Assembly (NCBI GenBank): GCA_020184695.1
Contig: JAANOX010000253.1
Span: 395,114-459,113, forward strand
Source: Histomonas meleagridis 2922-C6/04-290x
Taxonomy: Eukaryota > Protista > Parabasalia
Direction of reading: 5' to 3'
Length of the DNA: 64,000 nucleotides
The position numbers and the translations under genes are program-made. The notes under the pieces were generated by a model. The model was not told where the DNA came from. It saw only the letters and a list, made by a program, of their open reading frames with translations, and did not search any database. Position 1 is the first letter of the stretch; each line of letters starts with the position of its first letter. This document shows positions 26,396 to 62,015 of the stretch, piece after piece.

Positions 26396-26921
26396 CTCAA
26401 TAAATCAATAATATTTTAAGTATACTAATCTTTAATTTTAGAAATAATTATGTTTCTATTAATAACATATAAAACTCAACTTGCGATTTTGTACCATCGC
26501 ATATAGCGATCATCCTACGATCTTGATATTATGAATATATAATATATATACAATGTTGCATCTATGATTAATGAATAACTAAGAATAATATCATGATTAG
26601 CACAAAATAAATTTATTCTTTCACTCAAAAAAGTGCCAAATTCGACTTTTGCATAGTTTACATCAAACATTAGCTACAACGATAAGTGCCGATAGAAGCT
26701 TTAATGATTGATGGTAAATATAATTCAATTTTTACTATTTAAAAAAAAAAAAAAAAAAACAGACAGACACACTTCACAATTCCATTGTGATGCTTTGCAT
26801 ATGGTTTCAAATCCCCTTTATGTATATTGTCGTAAAAAGTAAATTATATATCATTGTAAAATTCATTATTTTTATAAATAAAAAAATATACAAATAATAT
26901 ATTAATATTTTTATAAAAATA

Positions 26922-27522
26922 TTACTGTTTATAAATTAACCCTGTAGATTTTACAAATTTTTAAACTGATATGTCGTTTATCAAGAAATTCTATGACATC
27001 TGGATAAGTATATTTTAAATTAAATGTTTCATTATTCTTCTTAACATATATTTTACTAACATAATCATAAGGATTGCTTTTACAACAATAACTATCAGTA
27101 TCTGCTTTTAATAATTTTATTTCATCAGTATCACATAATAACTGTATTAATTTGATTAGTTCATTTTCTTCAGCAATAACATACTTATTTACTATTAATG
27201 GGTTATTTTCAATAATATCTATTATTAAAATTAATGCTTGAATAAGATTATTTTTATTATTATGAATAATTTGTTGAATATTATTGTTTAATTCATTTGC
27301 TGTTTCTATGCTTCTTTCTACAGTAAGTTCATTATTATTGTTATTATATGGATATTTAACATCAACTTTAAGGTTATTACATAACCCGGCATCATGTGAT
27401 GCTTCAAAAGGATTTACAACAACATTAACATTTTGGTTTTGCTGTGGTGAATTAATATTTGTATTTACTTTTGCGAGGAATCATTTTGAACAACTTAATA
27501 CATGAGAATGTGGAACTGACAT
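26922..27522 (-). pseudogene. Conserved PLV hypothetical gene (MSVP...NPLIVNKYVIAEE...CCKS)
   Basis: Homologous to 34020-34586 and mirrored at 55869-56465. One premature TGA. Confidence 0.65.
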
Positions 27523-27909
27523 ATTTTTATTATATATAAAAAAGTATATATGACTGATATATTTAATATTATTAAAAAAATGAAATTAAATAAAATATTT
27601 ATTATTAAACAAATATCATATATTGAATTAATCAATTTTTATATTAATGATTTAGTAATATATAAATATGTTGTAATAGTTGCAAAATAGTAATAATATT
27701 AAAAAATGTAAAAAATTAGGTATTAATAATATATATAATATATATGATAATGATAACTATAATAAATTTATTAATATAAAAATTAAACCACCATTACATA
27801 ATGTTAAAAAAGGTAGATATATATTAATGTATAATCATAACATTAATGATATTACTGTATGCTCTGGTGAAGAAAAATATTAAAAAAACATATAAAATTA
27901 AAAATATTT

Positions 27910-29230
27910 TTATCTAGTAAATCCAGCTAAAACTTGTTCAATAGATGCGTTGGTAATTTCTATTTGAGATCCACCATCTGGTTTCATTAAACAAATTTTT
28001 AATATAGCATCTTCGAAATATATGCCAACTGGTGATATGAAATCCATATTTAAAATACTATTACTACCACCTTTACTACTGGGTATTCTATTACCATGTA
28101 ATTCTATTTGAACAGTGCCAGTTGTAGAGATACCACCTTGAAAAATCTTCACCCTCAGCAAATGGTAAACCAATGAAAAAATTACTATTATCTTTACCAT
28201 GCCAAACTTGTTTTTTTGTTATTCTAGAACTATCATCATCATATACATATTTATAATAATATGGTTGTAATGAAGTTTTAATATCATTATTTATACTACT
28301 TAATAAACTAACATTTAAATTCAATGCATCCAATGTCATATTTAAATGTTTAGAATCATTGATAGTTTCATATGATTCTCTTGAAGATATTTTACAATCA
28401 ATATTAAATCTATATTCTAATTGTGGGTTAATAAAGCACGTTCTACTATATTGATTTATTCTAAATACTGTAAACAATGTATCACAATGTCTTACACCTA
28501 TCGTAGCAGCAGTATCTAAATCATTATTTTTCAATAATGGTTGTGTAAAATCTCTCACTTCACATATATGTATTGGAAATAATAATGGGGTCTGGACATA
28601 TTTAGCAAATAATGCATTAAATACATCAATTTTTAACATATATTCTACTAATTTAATTTTAACATCTTTTGTAATTTGTGTATTATATTTAAATGTTTGT
28701 GATATGACGGTTGTATTAGTTGTTTTATTAATATTATTATTAACAGTTTCATTAATATTTCTGAAACTAAAATCTATTTTTATAATCATTTTGTAAGACT
28801 GTATCTTGAACTTTAGACATATCAACAATTGGAACTATTACCAAATTTTGATACGATGGCATTAATTCTATTGATAATTTTCCATCCCAGTTTGGATAAT
28901 ATCTCATATTAAATAATAATAAGAAATATGATAATGGTATTCGTAAAGGTATTTCTATAGTAATAAATTATTATGACTCATTATTTGAATACTAACTATA
29001 GTTTCTTTTTGTTCTTTATCTCCATTTTTTACAATACATTTTAATGCAATTACATGTCTTTATTTTGACTAGGGGATTCTAACCAACGTTGTGGATGACG
29101 AAATGTATAACCATTATTTTTATTTACATTAGTTAAATCTCTTTCATATTCTTCAATATCTAAATTAGTATAATTTTTGTTCTATAGGTAATTCTGATGC
29201 ATGAGTAGTAAGTTGCTTTTCAGTTCTCAT
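27910..29230 (-). pseudogene. Chimeric capsid gene: structural-gene N-terminus joined to putative major capsid protein C-terminal part
   Basis: The N-terminus (MRTEKQLTTHASELP...PQRWLESPSQNK) aligns with 42529+. The C-terminal part (PIHICEVRDFTQP, RTCFINP, SNFFIGLPFAEGEDFQGGISTTGTVQIEL) has no counterpart in family B. The MCP call is inferred from context and beta-rich character. Confidence 0.5.
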
Positions 29231-29247
29231 TTTAATTAGTATAAAAT

Positions 29248-30463
29248 ATGATTGAATCTAATAGAATTGAAACTATACTTAAATCTTTAATGAATAAAAA
29301 TAGTGTAGTATATTATAAACATAGTAAAACTTCTGATACCTTATCTAATGGTATTTGTTCATTAACAATTAATAGTGTAGATAAATTATTTATAATATTT
29401 ACTTATGGAAGATGTCATTTAATAATTAATCCTCTAGATTCCAGTATCAAAGGTCTTGTTTTAATAAACGATTATTTAGTAAGTGATATTATTACAGGAT
29501 CTAATATAATGAATAATGCTTATCTAAATCAAATGTTTAGTAATATTGATAAAGTATTGGACTTATATAAGGAATTTATTAAAATCGATCAGGAAAGTAA
29601 TAGTGTTAAAACATCTGATATGTTAGTAAATAATATTAATGGTTATTCTACAGAGAATTTTGCTTCGAAGAATCATAATCATGATGAAAGATATTCTTTA
29701 ATATCACATACACATAACATTATTGATAACGATTTAAATGTTAACGGTAATCTAACTGCTATAAAAATAAATGGATATTATATTTATGATAGTTCTGGCG
29801 GAGGATCTAATACAGCAATAAATATCCTATGTATAGCTACTATTAAAACAGATGGTGTTATGGAAGTAGGAGAATATATTGATTTTCATTATATATATGA
29901 TTATAATAAAGATAATAATTGGAGAATGAGAGCTTTAACTGATACTATAAGTTTTCAAGCAAAAGGAGGTAAAACAATTAGTTTTAGCAATGCTGGTAAT
30001 ATAAATTGTAATTCTATTAATAACATATCTACTGATAATATTTTTTTAAACGATCATAACCATGATGATAGATATTCATTATTAAATTATACATACTGAT
30101 TATTTAACAAGTGCAAATTTAGAAAATATCGATAATAAGTTGACAGGAATTATTTCTAATAAAGATTATATCGGAACTAACGAGGAGGAGGATATTTTTG
30201 AAATATATACTGTTATAAATCAAGATTTAAAAGTAAATGGTAATATAGAAGTTGATACTATCAAGAATTTATCTATTAATAATTTTTCATTAATAAATCA
30301 TACACATGATCAATATTTAACAAATGATATTTTAATCAATATAAATTAGGCTTTAACAGAAATATCATATAATGAATTTAATAAATGGACTAAGATTGAG
30401 AAAGATTTAATAGTAGGTAATGACATCAAATGTAGAATTATGTCAGCAAGTCGTAATATCAAT
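29248..30463 (+). pseudogene. Fibre-like protein with HxH (HNHDDRY/HTH) repeats, truncated
   Basis: Homologous to 39510-42512. The reading frame runs directly into the (AC)n putative terminus at 30464. Confidence 0.65.
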
Positions 30464-30570
30464 ACACACACAGGGGAGATTTCACTTCGTTTCACTCCCC
30501 CACTTCGCTTCGCTCGGTGTGTGTTATATCGCCTTCGGCTCAAGCTTCACTCACTACGTGCGCTCAGTAA
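30464..30570 (+). other. Putative PLV terminus: 5'-(AC)4-AG plus GC-rich hairpin cluster
   Basis: ACACACACAGGGGAG...CTCCCC stem, with GCTTCGC (30507-30513), GTTTCAC and GCCTTCGGC (complements of GAA-triloop mini-hairpins). Mirrored at 52886-52992. Confidence 0.6.
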
Positions 30571-30685
30571 AATATAAAAAAGTCAACTTTTTTAAATATA
30601 TATCCTAACATAATGATAATAATAATATATAATGAATGAATATTGTAGAAATACTATAAAATTGATGAAAATTATAATATGTCCT

Positions 30686-31290
30686 GCATGTCCATGATGT
30701 CCACGGTTGTCCTAGGACATTTAACTACTTATAAAACTTACCCGCAACACGCAATTTCGCAACAATTATAAAATTACATAAAAACATCGTGTCTGTAATT
30801 TTTTTCATATTTTTAAGTTCGCAACAATGATATATTCCTAACGTTATAATATTGTATATACTATATTATTGCGTAGTAAATTATTTTAATAATACCTATT
30901 TAGAAAGGACATATTCGGAAAAAAAAAAAAAAAAAAATATATTTCAACATAATGATTGTATATATGCTCTTTTGCGTAATAATTATATTATAGTTTTTAT
31001 ATCTCATCTAGGACATATAATTAACAATAATATATATTGTTGAAATATAAATTGTTGAGAAATATAATCGTTGAAATAAATTGTTTGTGAAATAAATATT
31101 TTTAACAGAATAATAATAATAATATTGTCCGTCTTTGTCCTTTATAAATAGGTATTATTAAAAAAATATTTTTTTATAAGCAAATAAGCATTTATTGTAT
31201 AATAATTGTTGCATAATTGCGTGTTGTGGGTGAGTTTTTAGGAGAAGTTAAATGTCATAGGACGACCGTGGACATCCAGGACGTTGTGGA
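30686..31290. repeat. ~85-bp imperfect inverted repeat pair in the family A non-coding region
   Basis: ATGTCCACGGTTGTCCTAGGACATTTAAC...CAACACGCAATT..GCAACAATTAT at ~30686-30772 versus its complement at ~31200-31290. Multiple GGACA/TGTCC motifs. Mirrored at ~52170-52770. Confidence 0.85.
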
Positions 31291-32039
31291 CAAACAAGAG
31301 TTTTAATCAAATTTATCGTAATTATACATTATTCATTTTTATAGATAAATTATACAAAGATTATCGTAATTTAAACATCATTAAAAATAACTATATTTTC
31401 AACAAATTTATCGTTCAAAAATAATTCTGAACAGTTGCACTTTTGAACGCCAATTTATTGGCTTGAATTCTTCATATGAACTAAAATAATAGTTTTAATA
31501 AATTATAACTATATAATGCTTTTACATATCAAACTTTACATGCTTATCTTTATCAATTACTTTTTGATTTGAATTTTTATTGGGACTTTCAATATTTGAT
31601 ATATCATCTGAAATACAAAAACATTCATTTAGATCATTAATTTTAGATTTGATCTTATCACATTTTTCTGTTAGTTTATTTTTGATTCATTTGATTATTT
31701 CATTCTTAGCATTCATATAACTTATTATTAACTTCAGAAGATGATATATTAGTAAGCTTTTTTTGATTTTTTAGCAAGCATATTATTAATAAATTTAAGA
31801 TTTAAAGCATTTAATATATTAAGTTTATCATCGTAAAACTTAACATTAACAAAGATAACACATTGTTTGATAGCTGTTCTAGTCTTTTTACCTATTTTCG
31901 TTAATATATTATGAGAATATTTAATATTAACAACTTTATATTTATCGTTATATTCAGATTTAATATACTCTTCAAATGATTCCATATTCATATATAAAAA
32001 AACATATTATTATATATAATAAAAAAGCATTTTATTTTT

Positions 32040-32500
32040 TCTCAATACTTTTTGGTAAAGTTAAGGTAATTCTTCTAGCTTTCATATATATATTATTGAA
32101 TCTGGTGTGTTGATCTTTGATTTTATGATATTCATTCCACATCTTATCAACATTAAAATAACTAGGAGGACTATTTTTCATTAACTCATAAAAACATTCT
32201 TTTGATATGCCTGGAAATAATATTATATCACTTAATGTTCTTTTTAGATCTTTAGGTATAGATTTTACAGTTTGAACACATATAACAATTAATTCAAAAA
32301 ATGGTTCATTAAATATAACTTCCTGATATGCAGATAATTTTTAATAGGAGCTATAAAAGCACATATACCATATCGAGATAAAAGGTATTCCTCATGAATA
32401 GGTCTAATTAAAGCATTATTTAATACATCCTTATATAATTTTACTTATATTATTAGAGTTATCATCAATCTCTTTAAATTTACTATCTTTATTTATCATA
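32040..32500 (-). pseudogene. A32-like packaging ATPase remnant with internal deletions
   Basis: Keeps IRPIHEEYL..YGICAFIAP, EPFFELI and VICVQTVKSIPKDLKRTLSDIILF. The Walker A lysine and Walker B are deleted. Mirrored at ~50960-51420. Confidence 0.7.
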
Positions 32501-33605
32501 AATACTTTTAAATAAAAATAAAATATATAACATTATTGAATATTTTTCATTCATTTCTGACATACCACTTATTCTTATTGTGGTATACATTTGATATAAT
32601 AAATATATTTCATGTAAGTTAGCGTTTACCAATATTAATTTAAAATGAGATAAATCATTAGTATTCATTTCTACTGCAAAATCTGCATTATTAACTATTA
32701 TAGAATAATTAGCACTGAAACTATTATTTACTCTTAATATTATTTTCGATATATTAAGATTATTATTTAAATTTCTATAACTACTTTTTCCTAAGTTTGA
32801 TACTATATATAATATTGGTGTTGAAAGATAGTTTCCTACTGATTTTGCTGAAATTTCGTATTTATTATTTTCATTATTATAACTAGCAGGTAATGGTAGT
32901 ATTTGATCATATAAACCTGATAATTGAAATATATTATAACTATAACTATTAATAATAAATTGATTATTAATTTTCTAGTAGGTGGACTAGGGAGATTTAT
33001 ATCAATTCTATTATAATGTTCATAATCATATGCTAATATCGTATAATCAATGCCCTCGTGTAGTATCTTATATAAAGTTGAAATATACTATCTTTGATTT
33101 ACATAAAATTCATAAATTTTATTTTTATTTTTAATAAATATAATGCCAAAGAGATTAAATACTAAAACAGTTAAAAATCTATATAATAAATATGGATATA
33201 CTCTACCAGATAATTTTGAACATATAAATACTACTATCAAATATAAAGTATTTGATGAAAGAAATAATAAGTATACTAAATTATCGTATAATCAGCTACA
33301 ATATAAAATTAAGAAAGGTTTATCAGAATATGATTCATTTGATGATTATTATAATATGGCTTTTATCAGATAAAGAATTTGCAGAGAAACCTGTTGGAAA
33401 AAATAAATCTATTAATGATATAACTAAAGATTTAATAAATAAATTATTATTACAAAAAGATTTTACTTATAATAATATTAATAAATAACATAACATTATA
33501 TTATATGCTTTAATGTATGCTATTAAATCAGTTGGTGCTAAGATCAATAAAGATATTAGAATGACAATAATTGGTGATGATAATAATATATCTTACTATC
33601 ATGCC

Positions 33606-34725: not shown

Positions 34726-35154
34726 TCAAAAGTATAACGAATTTGTTTTATCGTCATAGTAATAATCCTCTAACTGATGACCGGCATATTCTTTTATTTC
34801 AATTGAATTTTCATTAATTTCATCATAAAATTCATAATCTTTTCCAAGGTGTGATGATTTATTCTTTGAATTTTCTGACGAGGAAACCCACCGAAGATTA
34901 TTAATGCGAAAATCTGTTCTGTCATGATTAATGTGATCAATTTCTGTTTTATTATCAGGATTTGGTATAAATTGTAATGCTATTATTCTATGTTTGAGAT
35001 ATTTTCTGTCGTTCAAGCGATATTGAACGTATCCGCCTCGTGTTTCATCGACATGTTCGCTAATGATTCTTTTATCTGATTTTCTACTTATTTGAAAAGG
35101 AAATTTTGTAAAAATTATGTAATCGCAATCGCAAACACAAATAATCCAACTCAT
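34726..35154 (-). CDS. HNH homing-endonuclease-like protein
   Basis: GGYVQYRLN...LKHRIIALQFIPNPDNKTEIDHINHDRTDFRINNLRWVSSSENSKN is an HNH_3 consensus. The 5' end is probably frameshifted. Confidence 0.9.
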   Translation of the reverse strand: MSWIICVCDCDYIIFTKFPFQISRKSDKRIISEHVDETRGGYVQYRLNDRKYLKHRIIALQFIPNPDNKTEIDHINHDRTDFRINNLRWVSSSENSKNKSSHLGKDYEFYDEINENSIEIKEYAGHQLEDYYYDDKTNSLYF

Positions 35155-39509: not shown

Positions 39510-42500
39510 GCTCTAAGAGCTGAATACAGCTAACAGAGAATCAGATATAATTGCAGTGACTTTTCCAATAATCATATTATTTATTTTTGTCTATAATGGC
39601 GTATCGTCATATAATACAGTCCCATCATATAAAATAGTATCACCAATATTATATTTTGATGAATCATTAACTTTAAAATAATAATCTCCGTGAGTTGCAA
39701 AATCAATTGTATCTTGATTAATGGATATATCTTGTTTAATTATATCTCCTATTTGAAAAATTTCTCCAGCTGTATGTATTTCTGTACAAATTCCAATAAA
39801 TTCTTTATAAGAACCATTGCCTTTTACAGACGGAATACAATTAGTAGAATCAGTAACTGAAGTATAATTATATGAATCATTTAATTTATATACGTTACCT
39901 GTAATAAATACAGGACAACCGATATTGAAATCATTTAATGTTAATGTATCGTCTATTGGCGCGTTATGCACAATAGTTTTATTTATCTGTCCTCCACCAT
40001 TTGCTGATATAATTGCTTTTCTGTATATATCATCTGACACATGCCAAAATCTTAATTCATTTTGATAAGAAGCTATACGCCAATTATATGTTCCTGGTGC
40101 TTCTGTTGATTGGTCGTGATATACAAAATATAAAAATCTTCCTGTTCTTAATACTGCATTTTGATATAAAACTATATCATTAGGTTCATGAGTATGAGAA
40201 GAGAATGTAAATGTTGATGGTTTATCTGTAATATCATTATAACTATAAGTATGTCCATTTAATGAAAAGATACTTACATTAATATAATTAATAGAATTAC
40301 AATATATGTTACCATCATTTCCATTGAAACTGATAACATCATCATTATTATCAAGTTTACCGAAATACATAACATTGTCGGCAGTTCTTATTCTTCAGCT
40401 ATAATCACTATTATCATTATTATCATGAAGATCTATGTATTGTCCTTTTTCCATAACACTATCACTCTTAATAGTAGCTATACAAGGTAAAGAATTTAAA
40501 TGATTTCCTTCTGAAAAACCATTATTTATATAATAATTGTTAATCTTACCATTAATAGTGATGTCGTTGTTAATTTCGGTATGAGTATGAGAACTTGGCA
40601 TAAAAGTAGTTGGTTTGTTAATAATATCATTATAATCAGGTTTGTTAATACATAAATTATCAACAGTTTTATCTATATAAAATTCTTTTATTTCTGGGAC
40701 TGATAAATCTGTTCTTTGAGAAATACTTATGAAAAATTTATTTTCTGCATGTGATAAAGCTGTTTGTTGCCACTCATTATTAGATATATTTATTGTTTGG
40801 AAATTCAAATAATTGTAAGTATGAACATGACTTGTTAAAGAATATCTGCCATCATGATTATGTGTTGTTAATGAGTATTCATCATGAGTATGATTTAACG
40901 GAGAGTATTTGTCGTCATGATTATGTGTTGTTAATAAGAAACTACTAACAGAAATATTATTAATTGATGAACAAGCAAAATTACCAGATTTGTTGAATGA
41001 AAATGAAGGATTTACATATTCATTATCAATAAAAAATCTGACTAAATTAGGTCCACTCGAATGTAAACTAATTCTGAAATGAAAATCTGTTCCTTCTGCA
41101 TTATTTGTATGATGAAAATTCAAACAATTTGGTATTTCAAATACACCTCCGCTAATTAATGGGATTGATGGTGTTACTAATTAAGTTCATTTGCGATTAC
41201 CAATAGGATATCCGTTTAAAGTATTTACTTGAATATTACGATTAACTACCAAATCATTATGAATTGTTGTATGAGTATGATTTAACAAGAAGTATTTATC
41301 ATCATGACTATGTGTTGTTAGTGAGTATTCATCATGATTATGATTTAATGGATAGTATTTATCGTCATGATTATGTGTCGTTAGTGAAATATCATTTGTA
41401 TTAATACAGTTAATTGTTGTACATTCAACATTACCATTAATTATTAAGTCTTGATTAATTGATGTGTAAATTTCATGAATATCTGTTTCCTCTTCCTTGA
41501 CAGTTACTGTTTCTACATAACTTTATTAAAGCTTATACCAGTACTGGTATTTAATTATTTATATCACCGTCTTCACCTGGCGGTCCCATTAAAATTTCTT
41601 GAATATCTTCATCATCAATAATCATTTGTTTTGTGAAGTAGTATTCTATCGTTATTTCACCGTTGACGTTAATTATACCATAACTATATACTGTATTATC
41701 AAGCATAATTAAATTTCCGTTTGGAAAACTAATTAATAAAGAATTTTGGTTTTCTTCACCGTCAACTGTTGATATACTAACTCCGTTCACAAAAGATATA
41801 GCGTCTCCGATGAATAAAATTCTGTCTTTAACCAAAGCTATTTCTTCTGTATACCGTTAATAGTTGAACATTTAACATTACCATTAACTTTTAAGTCTTG
41901 ATTATTTGATGTGTAAATTTATTAAATATCTTCTTCTTCTTTATCAACAGTTACTGTTCCAACAAAATCTTCATTATAATTTATACCTGTGATCTTTTTA
42001 TTAATATTTATTAAATTATCATCCGTTAAATATTCAGAATGTGCATGATTTAATGGAGAGTATTTATCATCATGATTGTGATTTTTTAATGCAAAATCTT
42101 CTGTTGAATAACCGTTAATGGTATCAATAATTAAATTTGTAATTGTAACATTATTACTATCTTTATTGATATTTACGAATTGTTTATATAAATCTAAATC
42201 ATTATTTATACTATCAAACATTTCAATTATGTATGCATTTTTTATTATATTTTCTCCAGTAAGTATATCATCAACTCTAATATTATTATTGATATACTTT
42301 AAATTTTTTATACTATTATCTAACGGTGATATTACAACATGATTTCTTCCGTAAGTGAAAACAAATGATTTGTCATAACTATTTATCTGTAATGTACATA
42401 TACCATTTGATAATGTATCAGATGTTTTTGAATGATTACTGTATACAACACTGTTTTTATTCATTAATGCTCTAACTATATTTTCAATTTTTTCAAACTG

Positions 42501-42512
42501 TGAATTTGACAT
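39510..42512 (-). pseudogene. Long modular fibre/tail-like protein with HxH repeats and a short collagen-like segment
   Basis: Repeated HNHDD(K/R)YS, HTH, HSH and HAH motifs. Duplicated module at ~41400-41520 and ~41860-41960. MGPPGEDGD segment. C-terminal IGCPVFITG...DFATHGDYYFKV domain. Confidence 0.7.
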
Positions 42513-42813
42513 TTTTAATAAGATAAAAATGTATAAAACTGAAAATCAATTTACAACAACTGCGTCTCAGTTACCGATTGAAGAAAATTATACAAATCTT
42601 GATTTAGATAAGTATGAAGTATTAAATCCTCAAAATGGTTATACTTTCCGTTATCCTCAACGTTGGTTAGAGTCTCCATCACAGAATAAAGCTATTGGCA
42701 TAAGAAGATTAAATATAACTCCGACCGCTCACGTTTTTTTTTTTTTACAGTTTGAAGTAACTAAACCAGAAAGTGTCAGTGGTTCTTCATTTAATCCACG
42801 TATCATTAAAATT

Positions 42814-43963
42814 TGATTCTATGATAATATTTAATAATTTTTGGACAACCGTAAAACCCCATTCAAAATGTTGGACTAAAATAAAACATTTTTTTTAATG
42901 ATTTTTAATTAAATTAAGCTGGATATTATTGTTCCAGGATCTTTTCGTTCCATTTTGGTGTATTCCATAAATATCGTGGATCGCCATATTCCATGGCGTT
43001 GAATTACATTATCTTGGATACCTAGTTTTGCGGTAGCATTCGCTCCGCCTTTCCTTAGGGAATGGGAAGAATATTTATTGTGTTCTTTAATTCCAATATT
43101 CATCATTATATTTTTGATTTTTCTCGAGAATGTTTCATTAGAAAATTTAAAAACCTTTTCATTTTGGTCGAATTGTTTAAGCGAAAAAAAAAGTTGAACT
43201 CAATTAAACGGATTATGCTGTTGCTTGATAGGGTCACCCTTTATTATGAAACACATAGTACCACATGACAATGGATCATTTTTTGATCGTTTAATATTTA
43301 AAGAAATTCCATCTTCTTCAATTTATATGTCATTAAACTCAAGATTTGATAATTCAGAAAATCTTAATAAACCAAAATATGAAAGAGAAATTGCAGTGAA
43401 GAATTCTACATCTGAATATAAATTCTGATTCATAATTTTAGAAATTTTAATCATATCTTATTTTGTAATTGGTTTTTTTTTTGCTTTTTTATGGGAAACT
43501 CCAAGTTTTCTTTGAATTGATTTGATGTAATTTTGAAATTCATATGATTTTGTCTCATCATTTTGTTTTTGTGAATTGTAGTAATAAGAAAAACTAGAAA
43601 TAAATAATTTAAATGTGCTATATTGTATCGGTGGTTGACAAACATCTAATTTAAAGTGTAAAAATCATCTAATGTTTGCTTCTGTTAGAAATGGTGGAGG
43701 AGCTCCTTGTATTTCTTTCATTGTTCTTTCATAACTATTAAAATATGATTTATATGTGCTAACCGATGAAGGATTAATGGCGAATGCTTCCGACTCTTTT
43801 GTTGCCTCAACGAAGTCTTCAAAGTTCATTTTGTGACCGACCTCGGTCACATCATTTTGAATGGGGTTTTACGGTTGTCCAAAAATTATTAAATATTGTC
43901 ATAGAATAAAAGTTTTTGGCAACAACAGTCGCTTCAAGACGGTTGACCAAAAACTTCTAAGTT
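42814..43963 (-). mobile_element. Tyrosine-recombinase (Crypton/TEC-like) DNA element with ~55-bp inverted repeats
   Basis: IR at 42816-42870 versus 43853-43907 (one mismatch). No target-site duplication beyond TT. Boundaries defined by the restored host frame. Confidence 0.8.
42909..43850 (-). pseudogene. Tyrosine recombinase (phage-integrase fold, DIRS/Crypton-like)
   Basis: YFGLLRFSE (R), IKRSKND (K), SSHSLRKGGA (H-x-x-R), HGIWRS (H/W) and FMEYT (Y). Several in-frame stops. Confidence 0.9.
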
Positions 43964-44559
43964 ATGGCACAAAATACTTAATTTGAAATTTCAACGTCAG
44001 TTTGCAATAGTTTTAATAATGCATTCACCAGTTATAGATTATCTTACGAATACGAAAACTCAGGCAATTTATATTTTGCTTGTACTTATGTTGGTTCGGA
44101 TGAAACTCAGAATCTTGTCGCAAAATTTGCGATTGTTGATTCAGGAACTACTACATCTAATTTAGAAAGTTTTTTTATATTCTTAAATCAAGATGTAACG
44201 TCAGAAAATATAAGTTATTTGATGACTCAAACCGATGTAATGACTTTTAATAATATATGGAACCGTGAGTATTTAGAATTTCATGCTCAATTTAGTGATT
44301 CAAAACAAAGATTCATTGGCATCAAAAATGATTTTTATGATAAACCGACAGTATTATATAACGAGCCTAATAACGGCTCAACATTTAACATCAGATTTAC
44401 AACAAACGGCAAAAATAATATTTATTCAAAATACTCTAGGTTTATTATTCAATTAGTATTTTTTTATGATTACAGAAAAACTGTCGTACTTTAAGAGTAA
44501 AGCGACCTTTTGATATCATTAGGGGTTGTCTTTTTATCTTTTTCTTCATTAAATACAAC

Positions 44560-45280
44560 ATATATTTTAATACAACATTACAATAGAATTGACGTAAACT
44601 TACCGTCACTCACACGTCAAGCAAAAATGATTGTAACATCGCTAGCGACTAAATGTTCTATTGTTGTTATTGAGATAGATGATTTTATACAGATTAACGG
44701 CAAAAAATATCATTTCAATAATGATTATACAGACTCAAATTCGCAAACGTTTATATTACTATTGAATTCGCTTATTCAAGAATCAGGCGTTACGTCTGAA
44801 GTCGACGAAGCAGGAAGAATCGTATTTACTTTATCAAATGCTTTTACGATAAATAACGTTTCATATAATATAATTCAAATTTCTGGGTTGTACTCACAAA
44901 TTCTTACTCTTTCGTCAACATTCGACGGTACAGATACATTTGAAATATTCGCTGAATCAGTCGGAAACACTTTATCAACTCCTGTTCTTTATCTTTTGTC
45001 AAACGTTGGATAAAGTTCGTATAGAAACTTAAACAAAACCATTAACATTTCAAAAATTGTTTTTAGAATTAACAATAGCTTTTCGGCGAATTTTCCGATT
45101 ATTGTATCAAACGCTGATTTCGAAATTGACATTAATTCTAATGATTTATCACATATTCAATTAACACTCGTCGACGCAAACCTTCATGAAGAACATTTAC
45201 TGAATCCAATGTATATAACAATTTCTGTTCAAGGCATACAGGACGAAGATTTATTTGTCGGTGAGATTCAAAATCAAAAA
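44560..45280 (+). pseudogene. Putative minor capsid (penton-like) protein, one premature stop
   Basis: YNRIDVNLP...STPVLYLLSNVG*...RINNSFSANFPII...NDLSHIQLTLVDANLH. Clear ortholog at 50285-50926. The penton call is inferred from context and beta-rich pattern. Confidence 0.55.
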
Positions 45281-48600: not shown

Positions 48601-50097
48601 ACATATAAGCTCCATAAAGATCTATATAATAATACTTACCTATTAAATGTATTTGTTGCCATATATTTTTAGGAAATATCCATTTATTACGTATTTTATT
48701 AGCTATATCACCTGATAATTCGTATACACCATTAAAACAACCATACTCATACATAATCTTTAACACTAAATCACTATATCTATAATATTTTACAACATTA
48801 ATATTTAATTTTAATTTATTATTAATAATATTTTGTAATTCATTTAATCTATATCCTAATTCTTTATCAGTTATATCATATCCAAATAACTTCTTGCTAT
48901 GTTTCATTATTTTTAACAAATTTGAGTATAAACTCCTTATCAGGTATTTTTATTAATTTATAATTATTATAAGGTTTAATTACTGCTTTGTAGCTCCAAC
49001 ATAATTTATTATAAATGTTGATATCGATAGGTTTTAATAAATTATATTGTTTCATAACATCAATTAAAGAATATATATATATATTCATCCGTATATTCGA
49101 TGGGTTTAGATTTATTATAATTTGTAATACTATCAATTGATATATTAACATTTCCATTCAACATATGATGATTATATATAATTATTAATTTTATACTTTT
49201 ATCATATTGTTTTCCATAATCTCTGTGAGTAAAACCTTTGTTAGCCATATATCTAATATTAATATGAATTTTTAATAAATCAGATATATCTTTTAATTGT
49301 TATAATGGAACTGTTCTAGTATTGATAAATGATCTTAGCATATTAATCTCATTTACTGTAAATAAATTACTAGCAATAAATGATTGAACTAAACAAGATT
49401 CATTAATAATATCAATGTTGATGTTATTGAAAATACCATACTTAGTGAGATCTATATTAGTTATAATAATATAAGGGAAAAATCCTGGATTAACTCTTTA
49501 ACTATTTTTTAAATTTTCGAATTCAAATTTTATAGATATAATATTTTTGAAAGTGTCTAATGCCAATGTATTAGAATCACTAATATTATATTTTTCATTA
49601 ATAATATCATATAAGAAATTAACAGTATTCATATTTCCATGATAGTAAGATATATTATTATCATCACCAATTATTGTCATTCTAATATCTTTATTGATCT
49701 TAGCACCAACTGATTTAATAGCATACATTAAAGCATATAATATAATGTTATGTTATTTATTAATATTATTATAAGTAAAATCTTTTTGTAATAATAATTT
49801 ATTTATTAAATCTTTAGTTATATCATTAATAGATTTATTTTTTCCAACAGGTTTCTCTGCAAATTCTTTATCTGATAAAGCCATATTATAATAATCATCA
49901 AATGAATCATATTCTGATAAACCTTTCTTAATTTTATATTGTAGCTGATTATACGATAATTTAGTATACTTATTATTTCTTTCATCAAATACTTTATATT
50001 TGATAGTAGTATTTATATGTTCAAAATTATCTGGTAGAGTATATCCATATTTATTATATAGATTTTTAACTGTTTTAGTATTTAATCTCTTTGGCAT
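48601..50097 (-). pseudogene. Family A PolB, truncated just after motif A
   Basis: MPKRLNTKTV...FFPY...GCFNGVYELSG...YYYIDLYGAYM, then abuts the family B (AC)n terminus. Confidence 0.75.
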
Positions 50098-50284
50098 TAT
50101 ATTTATTAAAAATAAAAAAAAATAAAATTTATGAATTTTATTTAAAAAAAATCAAAGATAGTATATTTCAACATTATATAAAATACTAAACGATGTAATT
50201 GATTATACTATATTATCATATGATTATGAACATTATAATAGAATTGATATAAATCTCCCTAGTCCACCTACTAGAAAATCTAAA

Positions 50285-50926
50285 ATGATAATAACATCAT
50301 TAACTTCTAAATGTCCTATAGTTGTTATTGAAAAAGATGATTATATACAAATTAATAATAAGAAATATACTTTTAATAAGCAATATACTAATATTAATAG
50401 TGAATCATTTATAATATTACTAAATGAACTAATAATTGAAACAGGAATAACTGCTGAAATAGATGAATGTGAGAGAATAATATTTACCAGTAATAATCAA
50501 TTTATTATTAATAGTTATAGTTATAATATATTTCAATTATCAGGTTTATATGATCAAATACTACCATTACCTGCTAGTTATAATAATGAAAATAATAAAT
50601 ACGAAATTTCAGCAAAATCAGTAGGAAACTATCTTTCAACACCAATATTATATATAGTATCAAACTTAGGAAAAAGTAGTTATAGAAATTTAAATAATAA
50701 TCTTAATATATCGAAAATAATATTAAGAGTAAATAATAGTTTCAGTGCTAATTATTCTATAATAGTTAATAATGCAGATTTTGCAGTAGAAATGAATACT
50801 AATGATTTATCTCATTTTAAATTAATATTGGTAAACGCTAACTTACATGAAATATATTTATTATATCCAATGTATATCACTATAAGTATAAGTGGTATGT
50901 CAGAAATGAATGAAAATATTCAATAA
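50285..50926 (+). CDS. Putative minor capsid (penton-like) protein, family A
   Basis: 213-aa ORF homologous to 44560-45280. The left copy has a ~220-bp deletion. Confidence 0.55.
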   Translation: MIITSLTSKCPIVVIEKDDYIQINNKKYTFNKQYTNINSESFIILLNELIIETGITAEIDECERIIFTSNNQFIINSYSYNIFQLSGLYDQILPLPASYNNENNKYEISAKSVGNYLSTPILYIVSNLGKSSYRNLNNNLNISKIILRVNNSFSANYSIIVNNADFAVEMNTNDLSHFKLILVNANLHEIYLLYPMYITISISGMSEMNENIQ

Positions 50927-53900
50927 TGTTATATATTTTATTTTTATTTAAAAGTATTTATGATAAATAAAGATAGTAAATTTAAAGAGATTGATGATAA
51001 CTCTAATAATATAAGTAAAATTATATAAGGATGTATTAAATAATGCTTTAATTAGACCTATTCATGAGGAATACCTTTTATCTCGATATGGTATATGTGC
51101 TTTTATAGCTCCTATTAAAAATTATCTGCATATCAGGAAGTTATATTTAATGAACCATTTTTTGAATTAATTGTTATATGTGTTCAAACTGTAAAATCTA
51201 TACCTAAAGATCTAAAAAGAACATTAAGTGATATAATATTATTTCCAGGCATATCAAAAGAATGTTTTTATGAGTTAATGAAAAATAGTCCTCCTAGTTA
51301 TTTTAATGTTGATAAGATGTGGAATGAATATCATAAAATCAAAGATCAACACACCAGATTCAATAATATATATATGAAAGCTAGAAGAATTACCTTAACT
51401 TTACCAAAAAGTATTGAGAAAAAATAAAATGCTTTTTTATTATATATAATAATATGTTTTTTTATATATGAATATGGAATCATTTGAAGAGTATATTAAA
51501 TCTGAATATAACGATAAATATAAAGTTGTTAATATTAAATATTCTCATAATATATTAACGAAAATAGGTAAAAAGACTAGAACAGCTATCAAACAATGTG
51601 TTATCTTTGTTAATGTTAAGTTTTACGATGATAAACTTAATATATTAAATGCTTTAAATCTTAAATTTATTAATAATATGCTTGCTAAAATATCAGAAAA
51701 AAAGCTTACTAATATATCATCTTCTGAAGTTAATAATAAGTTATATGAATGCTAAGAATGAAATAATCAAATGAATCAAAAATAAACTAACAGAAAAATG
51801 TGATAAGATCAAATCTAAAATTAATGATCTAAATGAATGTTTTTTTGTATTTCAGATGATATATCAAATATTGAAAGTCCCAATAAAAATTCAAATCAAA
51901 AAGTAATTGATAAAGATAAGCATGTAAAGTTTGATATGTAAAAGCATTATATAGTTATAATTTATTAAAACTATTATTTTAGTTCATATGAAGAATTCAA
52001 GCCAATAAATTGGCGTTCAAAAGTGCAACTGTTCAGAATTATTTTTGAACGATAAATTTGTTGAAAATATAGTTATTTTTAATGATGTTTAAATTACGAT
52101 AATCTTTGTATAATTTATCTATAAAAATGAATAATGTATAATTACGATAAATTTGATTAAAACTCTTGTTTGTCCACAACGTCCTGGATGTCCACGGTCG
52201 TCCTATGACATTTAACTTCTCCTAAAACTCACCCACAACACGCAATTATGCAACAATTATTATACAATAAATGCTTATTTGCTTATAAAAAATATTTTTA
52301 ATAATACCTATTTATAAAGGACAAAGACGGACAATATTATTATTATTATTCTGTTAAAATATTTATTTCACAAACAATTTATTTCAACGATTATATTTCT
52401 CAACAATTTATATTTCAACAATATATATTATTGTTAATTATATGTCCTAGATGAGATATAAAAACTATAATATAATTATTACGCAAAAGAGCATATATAC
52501 AATCATTATGTTGAAATATATTTTTCAACAATATTATGTCCGACTATGTCCTTTATAAATAGGTATTATTAAAATAATTTACTACGCAACAATATAATAT
52601 ATACAACATTATAACGTTAGGAATATATCATTGTTGCGAACTTAAAAATATGAAAAATTACAGACACGATGTTTTTATGTAATTTTATAATTGTTGCGAA
52701 ATTGCGTGTTGCGGGTAAGTTTTATAAGTAGTTAAATGTCCTAGGACAACCGTGGACATCATGGACATGCAGGACATATTATAATTTTCATCAATTTTTA
52801 TAGTATTTCTACAATATTCATTCATTATATATTATTATTATCATTATGTTAGGATATATATTTAAAAAGTTGACTTTTTATATTTTTACTGAGCGCACGT
52901 AGTGAGTGAAGCTTGAGCCGAAGGCGATATAACACACACCGAGCGAAGCGAAGTGGGGGAGTGAAACGAAGTGAAATCTCCCCTGTGTGTGTATTGATAT
53001 TACGACTTGCTGACATAATTCTACATTTGATGTCATTACCTACTATTAAATCTTTCTCAATCTTAGTCCATTTATTAAATTCATTATATGATATTTCTGT
53101 TAAAGCCTAATTTATATTGATTAAAATATCATTTGTTAAATATTGATCATGTGTATGATTTATTAATGAAAAATTATTAATAGATAAATTCTTGATAGTA
53201 TCAACTTCTATATTACCATTTACTTTTAAATCTTGATTTATAACAGTATATATTTCAAAAAAATATCCTCCTCCTCGTTAGTTCCGATATAATCTTTATT
53301 AGAAATAATTCCTGTCAACTTATTATCGATATTTTCTAAATTTGCACTTGTTAAATAATCAGTATGTATAATTTAATAATGAATATCTATCATCATGGTT
53401 ATGATCGTTTAAAAAAATATTATCAGTAGATATGTTATTAATAGAATTACAATTTATATTACCAGCATTGCTAAAACTAATTGTTTTACCTCCTTTTGCT
53501 TGAAAACTTATAGTATCAGTTAAAGCTCTCATTCTCCAAGTATTATCTTTATTATAATCATCTTTATAATGAAAATCAATATATTCTCCTACTTCCATAA
53601 CACCATTTGTTTTAACAGTAGCTATACAAGGTATGTTTATTGCTGTATTAGATCCTCCGCCAGAACTATCATAAATATAATATCCATTTATTTTTATAGC
53701 AGTTAGATTACCGTTAACATTTAAATCGTTATCAATAATGTTATGTGTATGTGATATTAAAGAATATATTTCATCATGATTATGATTCTTTCGAAGCAAA
53801 AATTCTCTGTAGAATAACCATTAATATTATTTACTAACATATCAGATGTTTTAACACTATTACTTTCCTGATCGATTTTAATAAATTCCTTATATAAGTC

Positions 53901-56900
53901 CAATACTTTATCAATATTACTAAACATTTGATTTAGATAAGCATTATTCATTATATTAGATCCTGTAATAATATCACTTACTAAATAATCGTTTATTAAA
54001 ACAAGACCTTTGATACTGGAATCTAGAGGATTAATTATTAAATGACATCTTCCATAAGTAAATATTATAAATAATTTATCTACACTATTAATTGTTAATG
54101 AACAAATACCATTAGATAAGGTATCAGAAGTTTTACTATGTTTATAATATACTACACTATTTTTATTCATTAAAGATTTAAGTATAGTTTCAATTCTATT
54201 AGATTCAATCATATTTTATACTAATTAAAATGAGAACTGAAAAGCAACTTACTACTCATGCATCAGAATTACCTATAGAACAAAAATTATACTAATTTAG
54301 ATATTGAAGAATATGAAAGAGATTTAACTAATGTAAATAAAAATAATGGTTATACATTTCGTCATCCACAACGTTGGTTAGAATCCCCTAGTCAAAATAA
54401 AGTAGTTGGAATAAGACGTTTAGAAATCATACCTACATCACATGTAATTGCATTAAAATGTATTGTAAAAAATGGAGATAAAGAACAAAAAGAAACTATA
54501 GTTAGTATTCAAATAATGAGTCATAATAATTTATTACTATAGAAATACCTTTACGAATACCATTATCATATTTCTTATTATTATTTAATATGAGATATTA
54601 TCCAAACTGGGATGGAAAATTATCAATAGAATTAATGCCATCGTATCAAAATTTGGTAATAGTTCCAATTGTTGATATGTCTAAAGTTCAAGATACAGTC
54701 TTACAAAATGATTATAAAATAGATTTTAGTTTCAGAAATATTAATGAAACTGTTAATAATAATATTAATAAAACAACTAATACAACCGTCATATCACAAA
54801 CATTTAAATATAATACACAAATTACAAAAGATGTTAAAATTAAATTAGTAGAATATATGTTAAAAAATTAATGATTTAGATACTGCTGCTACGATAGGTG
54901 TAAGACATTGTGATACATTGTTTACAGTATTTAGAATAAATCAATATAGTAGAACGTGCTTTATTAACCCACAATTAGAATATAGATTTAATATTGATTG
55001 TAAAATATCTTCAAGAGAATCATATGAAACTATCAATGATTCTAAACATTTAAATATGACATTGGATGCATTGAATTTAAATGTTAGTTTATTAAGTAGT
55101 ATAAATAATGATATTAAAACTTCATTACAACCATATTATTATAAATATGTATATGATGATGATAGTTCTAGAATAACAAAAAAACAAGTTTGGCATGGTA
55201 AAGATAATAGTAATTTTTTCATTGGTTTACCATTTGCTGAGGGTGAAGATTTTCAAGGTGGTATCTCTACAACTGGCACTGTTCAAATAGAATTACATGG
55301 TAATAGAATACCCAGTAGTAAAGGTGGTAGTAATAGTATTTTAAATATGGATTTCATATCACCAGTTGGCATATATTTCGAAGATGCTATATTAAAAATT
55401 TGTTTAATGAAACCAGATGGTGGATCTCAAATAGAAATTACCAACGCATCTATTGAACAAGTTTTAGCTGGATTTACTAGATAAAAATATTTTTAATTTT
55501 ATATGTTTTTAATATTTTTTTCTTCACTCAGAGCATACAGTAATATCATTAATGTTATGATTATACATTAATATATATCTACCTTTTTTAACATTATGTA
55601 ATGGTGGTTTAATTTTTATATTAATAAATTTATTATAGTTATCATTATCATATATATTATATATATTATTAATACCTAATTTTTTACATTTTTTAATATT
55701 ATTACTATTTGCAACTATTACAACATATTTATATATTACTAAATCATTAATATAAAAATTGATTAATTCAATATATGATATTTGTTTAATAATAAATATT
55801 TTATTTAATTTCATTTTTTTAATAATATTAAATATATCAGTCATATATACTTTTTATATAATAAAAATATGTCAGTTCCACATTCTCATGTATTAAGTTG
55901 TTCAAAATGATTCCTCGCAAAAGTAAATACAAATATTAATTCACCACAGCAAAACCAAAATGTTAATGTTGTTGTAAATCCTTTTGAAGCATCACATGAT
56001 GCCGGGTTATGTAATAACCTTAAAGTTGATGTTAAATATCCATATAATAACAATAATAATGAACTTACTGTAGAAAGAAGCATAGAAACAGCAAATGAAT
56101 TAAACAATAATATTCAACAAATTATTCATAATAAAAATAATCTTATTCAAGCATTAATTTTAATAATAGATATTATTGAAAATAACCCATTAATAGTAAA
56201 TAAGTATGTTATTGCTGAAGAAAATGAACTAATCAAATTAATACAGTTATTATGTGATACTGATGAAATAAAATTATTAAAAGCAGATACTGATAGTTAT
56301 TGTTGTAAAAGCAATCCTTATGATTATGTTAGTAAAATATATGTTAAGAAGAATAATGAAACATTTAATTTAAAATATACTTATCCAGATGTCATAGAAT
56401 TTCTTGATAAACGACATATCAGTTTAAAATTTGTAAAATCTACAGGGTTAATTTATAAACAGTAATATTTTATAAAATATTAATATATTATTTGTATATT
56501 TTTATTTATAAAAAAATAATGAATTTTACAATGATATATATTTTACTTTTATCGACAATATACATAAAGGGGATTTGAAACCATATGCAAAGCATCACAA
56601 TGGAATTGTGAAGTGTGTCTGTCTGTTTTTTTTTTTTTTTTTTTAAATAGTAAAAATTGAATTATATTTACCATCAATCATTAAAGCTTCTATCGGCACT
56701 TATCGTTGTAGCTAATGTTTGATGTAAACTATGCAAAAGTCGAATTTGGCACTTTTTTGAGTGAAAGAATAAATTTATTTTGTGCTAATCATGATATTAT
56801 TCTTAGTTATTCATTAATCATAGATGCAACATTGTATATATATTATATATTCATAATATCAAGATCGTAGGATGATCGCTATATGCGATGGTACAAAATC

Positions 56901-56989
56901 GCAAGTTGAGTTTTATATGTTATTAATAGAAACATAATTATTTCTAAAATTAAAGATTAGTATACTTAAAATATTATTGATTTATTGAG

Positions 56990-57850
56990 AAAAATTTTGG
57001 GTAAATAAAATGATGATATTGATATTGCAATAGAAGGATGTGATTGTCGTGCTTTTTAATGAAAAATAAAATGAAATATTTCCAATACAAAAATACTGAT
57101 ATGTAAAAACTTATCACAATTGAACACATTTTATTAATAATGAATTTTGGATTGATATTTGTTCTTTAAGACTGATGATTTTACTTATTCAGATACAAAT
57201 TCACTTGGAAAACCATTATCCGATGCGATATACATATGGTTTTGAAAATATATTTTATATTTCTTGCTTGATTTTAATGAGCGGACTCCATTGTAAAAAT
57301 TGTCATGTGCGTTCTAACAACAACACTGAAATTTAAAACCAGCAACTAAAATTAAATGTTGTAAAATTGTTAGCCAAAAAAGCAGAACAAGCAGAAGAAG
57401 ACGCTAAGAAATGAGTTGCTGAATACAAGCATCAAGTAATCATTGAAGAGGAAGATGATGATGGTGAATTTGATGATTCTCAATGTCATGATATTTTGGT
57501 TACTAAATATTTCGTTGTGGCAAAACATTTGAAAACAAATATATTGCTCTTGAATATTTGAGTTTGCATGGATTTAGGTTTTCATATCTAGAAAAATTTA
57601 AAGACAGAAAAAGGTTTATTGAACACCTTGTCGAGAAAGTTATTGTTGATAATTGTTGTGTATGTTGTTCTTGTCAATTCAAGAAACTTTCTTCCATTGC
57701 GTGATCACGCAATTTCTTTTAAGGAAGAATTACCAGATTATTACGCAATGGGAACTTGTGTTTGTGAGTACAACCAATGCATTGATGAAAATGATGAAAT
57801 GCGCTTATGTCCGATGAATGAAATAAAACCGCTGTCTTTATCATCGTAAC
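56990..57850 (+). pseudogene. CCA-enzyme fragment fused to C2H2 zinc-finger fragment (copy 5 of 6)
   Basis: KILGK*NDDIDIAIEGCDC...DICSLR...GKPLSDA (compare the CCA enzyme GTP.EDA motif), then switches at ~57235 to the zinc-finger gene 5' region. Confidence 0.7.
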
Positions 57851-58141
57851 CGTCAATTTTTCAAATAACCAAAGAAATATAATTAAAACAATAACAGGTA
57901 CCTAAAGCTGTGATATGTTCATATTATGATAATATTTTTTTTAAATTTCGGATTATATATTTCTTCAAATTCTAATAGGCAATTCGAATAACAAAAATAG
58001 CTCACTAATGAGATTTACTTTTAAAAGTATGGATGGATCCATCGTTTGTGAAAGAGATTTCATTCATATTTTTGAATATCTTCATTATAAAATGCATCTT
58101 CATAAAAATAAAGTGGTTCATATGTATTTAAGTTCGATCTT

Positions 58142-58771
58142 CTAGTATTTTTCTGAACCTTTCTTTTCTTTTTTCATTTGGTTTATTCCTTTCTTTTGCT
58201 CATATTGTTCACTATCACATGATTCTTCGTTCTCAATACATTCCTTCTGACTTTTAGAAGTTTTTTTTGGATTCTTTCTTTTTTCAATGGGTGAAATTGG
58301 TTTTGATATTTTTTTTGTTTTAACTTTTGTTATCTTTTTTGTTCTTGTTTTGATAGATCTTCTAAATGTTTTAAATTCAAGTGTTAACAATCCTACCACG
58401 TTCTTGCTTTTATTTATTGTTGATTGCTTCAAATAAAAGTTTTTAATAATTTTTTTGTTTATTTTGTTTAATTTTGATATTGAAAATATTATTGTGTCTA
58501 CAATCTTAATCTTATGATATTCATCAATGAATTGATATATATCAATAAATAATGAATCTAATTTAGGCTCTTTACATTTAAAAAAGAATTCATCATTCCA
58601 TATAGGATTTTGCGTTTTTTCTTGAATAGAAGAAACAAAACAATTGGTTGGGAATTGACTTCTTAGACATAAAGCAACAAATGTATTAGGTAGTGTCTCA
58701 TTTTCTCCATCATAATTTAAATATTGTGCTTTGGATACTTTCACATGAATTAATGCTGCCATGGACAACAA
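58142..58771 (-). CDS. C2-domain protein (more intact copy)
   Basis: 209-aa ORF with C2 consensus. Confidence 0.8.
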   Translation of the reverse strand: MLSMAALIHVKVSKAQYLNYDGENETLPNTFVALCLRSQFPTNCFVSSIQEKTQNPIWNDEFFFKCKEPKLDSLFIDIYQFIDEYHKIKIVDTIIFSISKLNKINKKIIKNFYLKQSTINKSKNVVGLLTLEFKTFRRSIKTRTKKITKVKTKKISKPISPIEKRKNPKKTSKSQKECIENEESCDSEQYEQKKGINQMKKEKKGSEKY

Positions 58772-59889
58772 TAAAATAATAAAAAATTTTATGTTAACTT
58801 ATTTATAAAAAGTAAAATTATACATAATAATGATAAAATAGTTTTTTGTTTTTGTCTTCTAAATTTTTTACAATAATGAAATAAAATACGTCTTCTTGTT
58901 GTATTCATAACTATCGTAAAAAAGTACATATGTACAGCCAGACATATTACAACAAAATTACAAAATTGACTCTTGCAAGAAGAAGTTACAATCCGAAGAT
59001 AGTGCCGCCCTATAACTCCTCCTTTTAGATCATATTACATATAAATTTCTTCTTTCCAAAATGAACCAAAGATGGAAAGAATCTGTAAATAAAAAAATCA
59101 AAAATAGGGAGACACCCTATTTTTCCTTAGCACAACCAAATTTTGACATTGATATACGAACAGAATCAATCTATTTTCCACCATTTTAGATTAATCAAAT
59201 ATTGCAATTTCCAGACAAGACAAAACAGTTAATTTTATTCTCCAAGGAAAAAAAATCAGTAATTATTTTTTTGTTTATGAAAAATCAAGATTAATTACCA
59301 AAAATTCAAAAAAATAAACGAAACAAAAATCTAAAAACTTCAATCACTTCACTCTGTTCTTCCATATTTAATCAAAAAACTTCATAATTTAGTTTCGAAA
59401 CAAGCTTCAGTTGAAACAATTTTAGAAGCCAAAGGAGCATAAGAACGAATTTAATAAAAATATACAAAACACAAAAACGAGAAAATCAGCAACTTCGCAA
59501 ACTAGTTAAAAAAACAGAAAACAAAAGAATCTCAACTCTCAATGAAGAACAAAACGAATTAATTCAAAATATTTTGGAATTAAAAAATGAATAATCAAGA
59601 AATTGAATAATTATTTCAAATTAATTACAAAAAAAATAAAAAGTTAAATGATGAAATATCAGAAAAAAATTAAAAAAATGCATATGTGGAACTAAATAAA
59701 CAGTTAAAAAACGATTTCCTCTTCCTTCAACTTTCCATTTTCTTGTGCACAAAATTTTTGAATAATTTACTTAATCTAACAGAAATAAAGCAGAAGGCAA
59801 CATTTCTACAGACGGAATTGAAACATCCTAAAGGGATTCACCAGAAATTAACCAATTTTTCTAACCCACCACTTTTTTTAATTATGTTT

Positions 59890-61928: not shown

Positions 61929-61965
<37 letters not shown>

Positions 61966-62015
61966 GCTTTATAACCAGACAATTGATTTAAATCATTAAC
62001 AAAGAATTTTGACAT
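61257..62015 (-). CDS. GT31/Fringe-like glycosyltransferase (open copy)
   Basis: 252-aa ORF with HRGADDNVIN, FLQGGSGY and EDV. The N-terminal YIYIYI stretch comes from an (AT)n microsatellite, so the true start is uncertain. Confidence 0.7.

Follow-up and report, generated by a model that had tools for sequence, protein, structure and literature searches.

Eukaryotic elements with a tyrosine recombinase as their only gene have been described as Cryptons, and the groups CryptonF, CryptonS, CryptonA and CryptonI were set out by Kojima and Jurka (2011; PMC3212892, in part; sources that were available to us in part are marked in this way). The site format given in the available text of that paper has arms of 11-13 bp and a spacer of 6-8 bp, and parabasalids are absent from its Crypton host table. 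According to PMC13565253 (in part), the mechanism by which eukaryotic recombinase-only elements transpose has had no experimental demonstration. The retroelement DIRS-1 depends on its internal complementary region (ICR), which acts at the level of single-stranded DNA (PMC7192593, in part). In bacteria, tyrosine recombinases use the integron attC and CTX phage sites in the form of folded single strands (PMC4792948, in part), and SE elements circularise one strand in a strand-biased manner (PMC9345347, in part).

Here we compare these systems with a small element found in the window, by which we mean the whole 64-kb stretch of DNA that was analysed. The element lies on the minus strand at 42814-43958 and is 1143-1145 bp long, with its left border at 42814-42816 and its right border at 43956-43958. 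These borders are given by an empty-site joint. In read contigs, other copies of the virus gene run from 42813 to 43959 with a single C in between, as seen in a joint in run X2 (depth 2338) and in loose ends in six contigs each of X1 and X2. The filled site was also recovered, with no other letters in read contigs over 43868-44059 (X1) and 42734-42955 (X4, one gap). Because read contigs span both junctions, an assembly artefact was ruled out as the origin of the insertion. The contigs were aligned to 41900-44900 and come from four runs. These runs cover two samples, which provide all of the DNA-level support and belong to a single study that may also be the source of the window itself. The insertion, other copies of the element, its end layout and its lack of a second gene are direct observations, and we consider it very likely that this is a real, mobile, recombinase-only element with the end layout described below. 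The empty site and the other copies bear out the original prediction that the recombinase belongs to a stand-alone mobile element, as opposed to being a viral gene fixed in place; stand-alone status is established for this copy only.

The empty site also corrects the borders. An earlier right end at 43963 is 5-7 bases too far to the right: with one base separating 42813 from 43959 in the empty site, the end falls at 43956-43958, and 43959-43963 are part of the virus gene. An empty allele had been predicted and was found, but the predicted version is six bases short, and by the same border the right inverted repeat lies about 50 bases inside the element and not about 56. As predicted, no target-site duplication of at least 4 bases was seen when the filled and empty sites were compared. 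The direct match between the borders is at most a 2-3-base nTT, namely the ATT of the target at 42811-42813 and the CTT of the element at 43954-43956; a single TATGG is present, at 43963-43967 within the flanking target sequence. Reading the borders as nTT leaves base 43958 over, so that the filled allele has one base more than this model predicts. Alternatively, the borders are 42815-43958 and the C of the target has changed. In one other copy, the sequence before 42816 lacks a TT where this model would place it.

The interrupted gene is on the plus strand. Its 5' part (42529-42813) is 89% identical to residues 1-93 of the intact homologue P0163, and its 3' part (43959-44494), which has one stop at 43979-43981, is 81% identical to P0163 over the last 170 codons. 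Twelve homologues were found, 11 of them full length and intact (265-283 aa), and across the break homologues read K-[FI]-Q-V-M-A-Q-N, the closest of them K-F-Q-V-M-A-Q-N, in agreement with the read contigs. A structural model of P0163 (mean pLDDT 66.6) was compared with known structures in a wide search. Residues 66-198 matched a capsid chain of EhV-201 (Z 9.4, rmsd 2.4, 104 aligned), a PBCV-1 capsid chain (Z 6.5) and the mavirus penton (Z 5.3). Foldseek alone gave no match at E<=0.001 and weak minor-capsid rows, and the penton assignment comes from the wide structure search and not from Foldseek. The modelled fold indicates that the gene likely encodes a penton or minor capsid protein, and the penton-like fold makes it likely that the element was inserted into a viral structural gene, as had been proposed.

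Neighbouring frames match the A32 ATPase, a D5-type helicase domain and DUF3839, a domain with a link to Trichomonas, and are consistent with a Maverick/Polinton-type virus of a parabasalid. Broken paralogues of the penton-like gene occur in a second virus type at 54282-54527 and 29053-29178, and an HNH endonuclease frame lies at the edge of the viral block (34726-35154). The element is in a central viral block of 16 kb, which is flanked by a large inverted duplication (19444-33603 and 49638-63857) with blocks of 94-99% identity that include host genes and the second virus type; this is either a rearrangement or an assembly artefact. Inside the second virus type there is an AT-rich unit of 720 bp at 30625-31346, with a duplicate at 52117-52832. 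It has inverted repeats of about 145 bp (79%) and an inner inverted pair. In one arm, 10 bases are identical to the core of the element motif described below, and the unit may be either a viral origin or a non-autonomous element. Elsewhere in the window, GC-richer segments are repeated at 13151-14438, 19693-20964 and 62352-63617, and two of the frames examined there match Myb DNA-binding domains.

Read contigs contained additional copies of the element. Over 43081-43230, four distinct contigs were present in both X1 and X2, with 0/150, 7/151, 20/251 and 43/336 letters differing from the window. Among the 14 of 30 loose-end rows and 17 of 125 pieces listed, junction contigs enter different flanks behind 43960, 43972 and 43915 and before 42816, and some of the other copies have single-base insertions within the recombinase frame. 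Contigs on 41900-44900 with viral flanks numbered 2217 and 2436, and those on the element alone 63 and 60; summed contig depth was excluded as a measure of copy number. These data show that the element is mobile and low in copy number.

Some information about targets can be taken from these flanks. None of four flank motifs of other copies matched the viral DNA of the window, which represents part of the viral diversity. Two other-copy contigs continue for at least 255 loose letters, which suggests that the flanks of those two copies are outside young high-copy repeats. The flanks before 42816 (X2) and behind 43960 (X1) are reverse complements over 9-10 bases and, if both come from the same copy, that copy may therefore sit at the centre of a palindromic target. 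Behind 43972 (X1 and X2), another copy aligns for 14 bases beyond the end of the element and then diverges, a hint that the target preference includes TATG a few bases from the crossover. Endogenous Maverick-type viruses make up 27-54% of the Trichomonas vaginalis genome and 34% of that of Tritrichomonas foetus (PMC10120064, in part), and because such viruses are so abundant, a single viral insertion is no sign of preference.

The gene of the element is a Cre-like tyrosine recombinase pseudogene of 306 codons at 42909-43829 on the minus strand. The catalytic residues R156, K183, H256, R259, H279, W282 and Y290 are kept and align with those of four intact relatives, P0002-P0005, which were found by a word search and are 40-56% identical. 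All of the catalytic residues that had been recognised earlier are thus in place, but it had been overlooked that this copy is dead, with in-frame stops at codons 55, 124, 169 and 210. The stop at codon 169 was confirmed in a read contig that is identical over 43201-43360. An alternative genetic code was ruled out, since both TAA and TGA occur among the stops, which stand where relatives have G, E, K and W, and since other copies, in the rows shown, read sense at three of the four stop positions. Pfam matched Phage_integrase (E 1e-6) and, weakly, a SAM-like domain at the N-terminus, and clusters with Phage_integrase alone were returned from the ESM Atlas. The closest solved structure is Cre (positions 16-299, E 1e-19), and XerD also matched (E 1e-7). 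No second frame was found within the 1.15-kb element and no second recombinase or reverse transcriptase (RT) in the 64-kb window. One low-depth contig of a run guessed to be RNA touches 43859-43917 and run X5 was empty; neither was counted as evidence about expression.

A profile search gave 71 clusters at E <=1e-30 among the best 150 listed, mostly of about 300 residues, and about 70 clusters are at less than 50% identity. Among 23 recombinase representatives that were looked up, the named member is TRFO_04238 of Tritrichomonas foetus. Pfam found Phage_integrase in 37 of 43 relatives, SAM_4 in four and SAM_1 in two, and no match to DUF3504, GCR1_C or DUF3435 in P0001 or the 43 relatives. The nearest relatives outside the family are recombinases of the DIRS order. 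An RT-like frame was present at 25 of 83 distant loci, RVT_1 was found in 16 of 24 frames scanned, and RT or RNase H domains were found in three of five longer outside matches. In a tree of 186 rows, the 72 close rows and two lower-ranked matches formed a group of 74 rows (support 87) that included none of the 20 RT-linked rows. A tree of 55 rows (26 close, 14 RT-linked and 15 other, with six RT-linked near-duplicates or long branches omitted) placed the close rows on one side of a branch with SH-aLRT 96, again with no RT-linked row (0/14) inside, and the virus-linked rows L001, L002 and L012 were also outside. The group in these trees was first defined by profile score, the backbone has no resolution and the trees included no Crypton reference sequences. 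As judged from these trees, the recombinase appears to belong to a separate clade of about 70 clusters of Cre-like enzymes of about 300 aa.

No DNA around close relatives was found in viral, JGI metagenome or prokaryote collections, and the 96 loci that were fetched are from distant relatives (22-53% identity in the best-matching segment). Scanning 83 of these, those fetched first, and six of the 13 later ones, all outside the close family, for inverted repeats revealed no such end layout. Fused forms of the close family were absent among 7317 longer candidates, which weighs little. The 1-2 kb contigs that carry relatives were rejected as a sign of element size, since homologues of the viral gene are on equally short contigs.

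The ends of the element have an unusual design. The left, terminal inverted repeat (42816-42870, plus strand) has 55 bp and starts with ATT, and the contig of another copy turns loose just before it. Its partner, the right, internal repeat, is at 43853-43907 on the minus strand, and 54 of the 55 bases are complementary, which confirms the 55-bp inverted repeats originally predicted. A 15-bp motif occurs exactly, at the three predicted places, as L1 at 42838-42852 (plus strand, 22 bases inside the left repeat), as its partner R1 at 43871-43885 (minus strand) and as R3 at 43939-43953 (minus strand), which abuts the CTT at the right crossover. From its position, L1 is likely a recombinase half-site. 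The window contains seven matches to the motif, these three and four others with three mismatches each, compared with a chance expectation of 3.95 at up to three mismatches. A degenerate copy that had been noticed near 43913 is indeed there, but it is the second arm of a terminal hairpin at 43910-43956. The arm at 43910-43931, which contains the degenerate motif and a 2-base bulge, pairs with the arm at 43936-43956. Just upstream of the start codon, a small perfect palindrome (43832-43851) with arms of 8-9 bp folds better than all of 300 shuffles on either strand; it is possible that it is a promoter or operator.

Folding of the hairpin region (43825-43965) gave a z of -4.0, with none of 200 shuffles as stable, and for the 47 bases that follow the right repeat 0 and 2 of 300 shuffles were as stable. 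In each run, two contigs of other copies keep the hairpin, differing at four places among the rows shown. Three of the differences are in the inner stem and result in perfect pairing around a three-base loop; the outer 2-base bulge is apparently retained. On the minus strand, the loop in these copies is of the GC-GAA-GC type, a sequence that forms an unusually stable DNA mini-hairpin.

Because the right extension of about 50 bp is a hairpin, 43853-43931 complements the joined ends of the element. This segment, of which the right repeat is the first half and the hairpin arm the second, matches the predicted circle junction in reverse complement over about 78 aligned bases. Any element with inverted repeats folds back as a single strand, and therefore only the hairpin half is specific evidence for such a design. 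The hairpin-arm part of the junction match scored above all of 1444 background windows. When the element was folded as a circular single strand, both strands paired 42816-42870 with 43853-43907 and 43910-43930 with 43938-43956. The predicted fold is one rod or dumbbell whose stem consists of the paired 55-bp repeats and the hairpin, and in which the joined ends form a mismatch of 2-3 bases in the middle of the rod. The motifs had been likened to recombinase arm or core sites. Since the asymmetric end holds an internal segment complementary to the circle junction, the layout points to DIRS-like end pairing as well, not to such sites alone.

Because the joined ends of the element recur inside it as an inverted copy, we favor movement as a folded single-stranded DNA circle as the likely route. 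Our main reading, to which we give a probability of roughly 0.5, is that this low-copy, recombinase-only DNA transposon, inserted without target duplication in a likely penton gene, moves by the folding of one strand with both of its ends against the internal complementary copy. In a sequence of steps drawn entirely from the layout, a strand exposed during replication or transcription would fold, and the Cre-like enzyme would join both ends by a single strand exchange. The single-strand circle released in this way would already have a double-stranded attachment site through its pairing to the internal copy. The enzyme could then cross the circle into an AT-rich target by way of an nTT match of 2-3 bases, and host replication or repair would complete the insertion. 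The donor would stay in place, making this a copy-out, paste-in process. The DIRS-1 ICR, the folded attC and CTX sites and the SE elements introduced above serve as precedents for this reading. Several observations stand against this folded-strand reading. An identical layout serves an RNA route in DIRS, the borders fit no model to the base (there is an extra base, and one flank has no TT), and the two crossover half-sites are unlike each other, not symmetric as in loxP.

One alternative, which we regard as unlikely, is Crypton-type cut-and-paste on double-stranded DNA. The motifs would then be binding sites, the excised form a double-stranded circle, and the internal inverted copy of the junction either a by-product or a second recombination site for inversion or amplification, a role like that of the FRT pair in the 2-micron plasmid of yeast. 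Cre, the closest structure, works on double-stranded sites, and CTT, two bases and ATT together make an 8-base spacer that R3 abuts. A recombinase-only element that makes no duplication also fits the Crypton model (PMC3212892 and PMC13565253, both in part). However, this leaves unexplained why the internal copy adjoins the right end and is inverted against it, and why in other copies the inner stem of the hairpin continues to pair beyond the motif. Also, no inversion joint was among those listed for the four runs in both read-contig alignments, in which contigs drop rare forms.

It is less probable still that the element is a non-autonomous DIRS-like retroelement. In this case it would have lost gag and RT, would be transcribed from the hairpin end and would borrow RT in trans, and the internal complement would rebuild the ends from a shortened transcript. 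The end layout fits the DIRS rules, as does the nTT (ATT at 42816, CTT at 43954) apart from the extra base and the one flank noted above (PMC3266345, in part), RT of DIRS-1 can act in trans (PMC7192593, in part), and the DIRS-order recombinases nearest to the family, some of them with RT-like frames or RT domains, also speak for it. By contrast, the family branch is without RT-linked rows in both trees, and the approximately 70 clusters at less than 50% identity argue for an old, independent lineage and not a recent deletion product. In addition, the internal complement is upstream of the gene in this element but at the 3' end in DIRS. Finally, a specialist parasite of endogenous Maverick/Polinton viruses, targeting viral genes and spreading through the single-stranded replication stage or the particles of the virus, would suit a copy in a penton-like gene near the A32 ATPase and D5-type helicase and the recurrence of the 10-base motif core in inverted repeats of the 720-bp unit of the other virus type, but it is very improbable, and parasitism of viruses as a trait was not upheld, given that this is a single insertion of a kind expected by chance where viruses are a third or more of related genomes (PMC10120064, in part), that no other-copy flank motif matched the window and that the two contigs with long loose ends suggest flanks outside young high-copy repeats.

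On a tentative view, which we hold at clearly less than even odds, parabasalids would be host to a group of single-gene transposons that is old, diverse and so far undescribed and whose Cre-like recombinase works on one folded strand, giving copy-out, paste-in movement with DIRS end pairing and no RT. If true, this would provide a living model of the DNA element that gave DIRS retrotransposons their recombinase and ends, the origin of DIRS ends being an open question. The system is minimal, with one 300-aa enzyme and about 160 bp of end sequence, has a precise empty site and includes the intact relatives P0002-P0005, so that single-strand, double-strand and RNA routes are directly testable. 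The locus adds recombinase elements to parabasalids, for which none was described in the literature searched, and identifies a penton-like gene in parabasalid endogenous viruses. It further contributes an empty site whose position is mapped, a target gene of the penton-like kind and a clade to which a parabasalid sequence belongs.

Our literature search, to whose scope Repbase, subscription papers and supplements (including the Crypton list of PMC3212892) did not belong, found neither the family nor the layout described, and no matching element appears in the available text of PMC5753468, PMC8869645, PMC12220804, PMC12130899 and PMC4157794. Several known systems share features with the element. 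Polinton-like-virus integrases are similar in being Cre/DIRS-like enzymes inside an endogenous virus and in making no target duplication (PMC12220804 and PMC10120064, both in part), but here the recombinase interrupts a viral gene and other virus copies have the empty site. Ciliate TEC elements have a DDE transposase besides the recombinase (PMC3212892, in part), unlike this element, which has no second frame. At attC, CTX attP and SE sites, as in the folding proposed here, a single strand can give rise to a duplex that has bulges or mismatches close to the crossover, and exchange of one strand followed by replicative resolution is our model for the element; these systems are bacterial, however, use IntI- or Xer-type enzymes and, in the case of SE elements, need four genes (PMC4792948 and PMC9345347, both in part).

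The closest comparisons are with Cryptons and DIRS1-like elements. Cryptons are also small and low in copy number, have a tyrosine recombinase alone, make no true target duplication and have been proposed to use a circular intermediate (PMC3212892, in part). By contrast, they have terminal direct repeats of 4-6 bp or none and, in the available text of PMC3212892 and PMC13465315, no terminal inverted repeats, whereas the element has 55-bp inverted repeats and a hairpin, and the Pfam marker domains of Crypton A/I/F and Starship named above are absent from it. CryptonV, of which the sources available in part gave us the name and a targeting of microsatellites, is outside this comparison. With DIRS1-like elements, the element shares inverted terminal repeats, a right extension and an internal region complementary to both ends (PMC7192593, PMC3266345 and PMC6681497, all in part), and its recombinase, with an HGRW motif, is of the same broad type as theirs. 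It also shows nTT where its ends pair, although the extra base and the flank of one other copy depart from the DIRS rule. The end layout is a compact DIRS arrangement in which a single hairpin takes the place of both the extension and the right half of the internal complement. It differs in lacking gag, RT/RNase H and methyltransferase and in being 1.15 kb long, compared with 3.8-6.3 kb for DIRS among the table rows listed (PMC3266345, in part). Its internal complement is upstream of the gene, with the hairpin looping to the end and no long conserved repeat between, and its enzyme is in a clade of its own and not nested among RT-linked recombinases. In the literature searched, no described family fits fully, in agreement with the original prediction of an undescribed element. 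The element departs from both Cryptons and DIRS in a defining respect, combining the gene content of the former with the end design of the latter.
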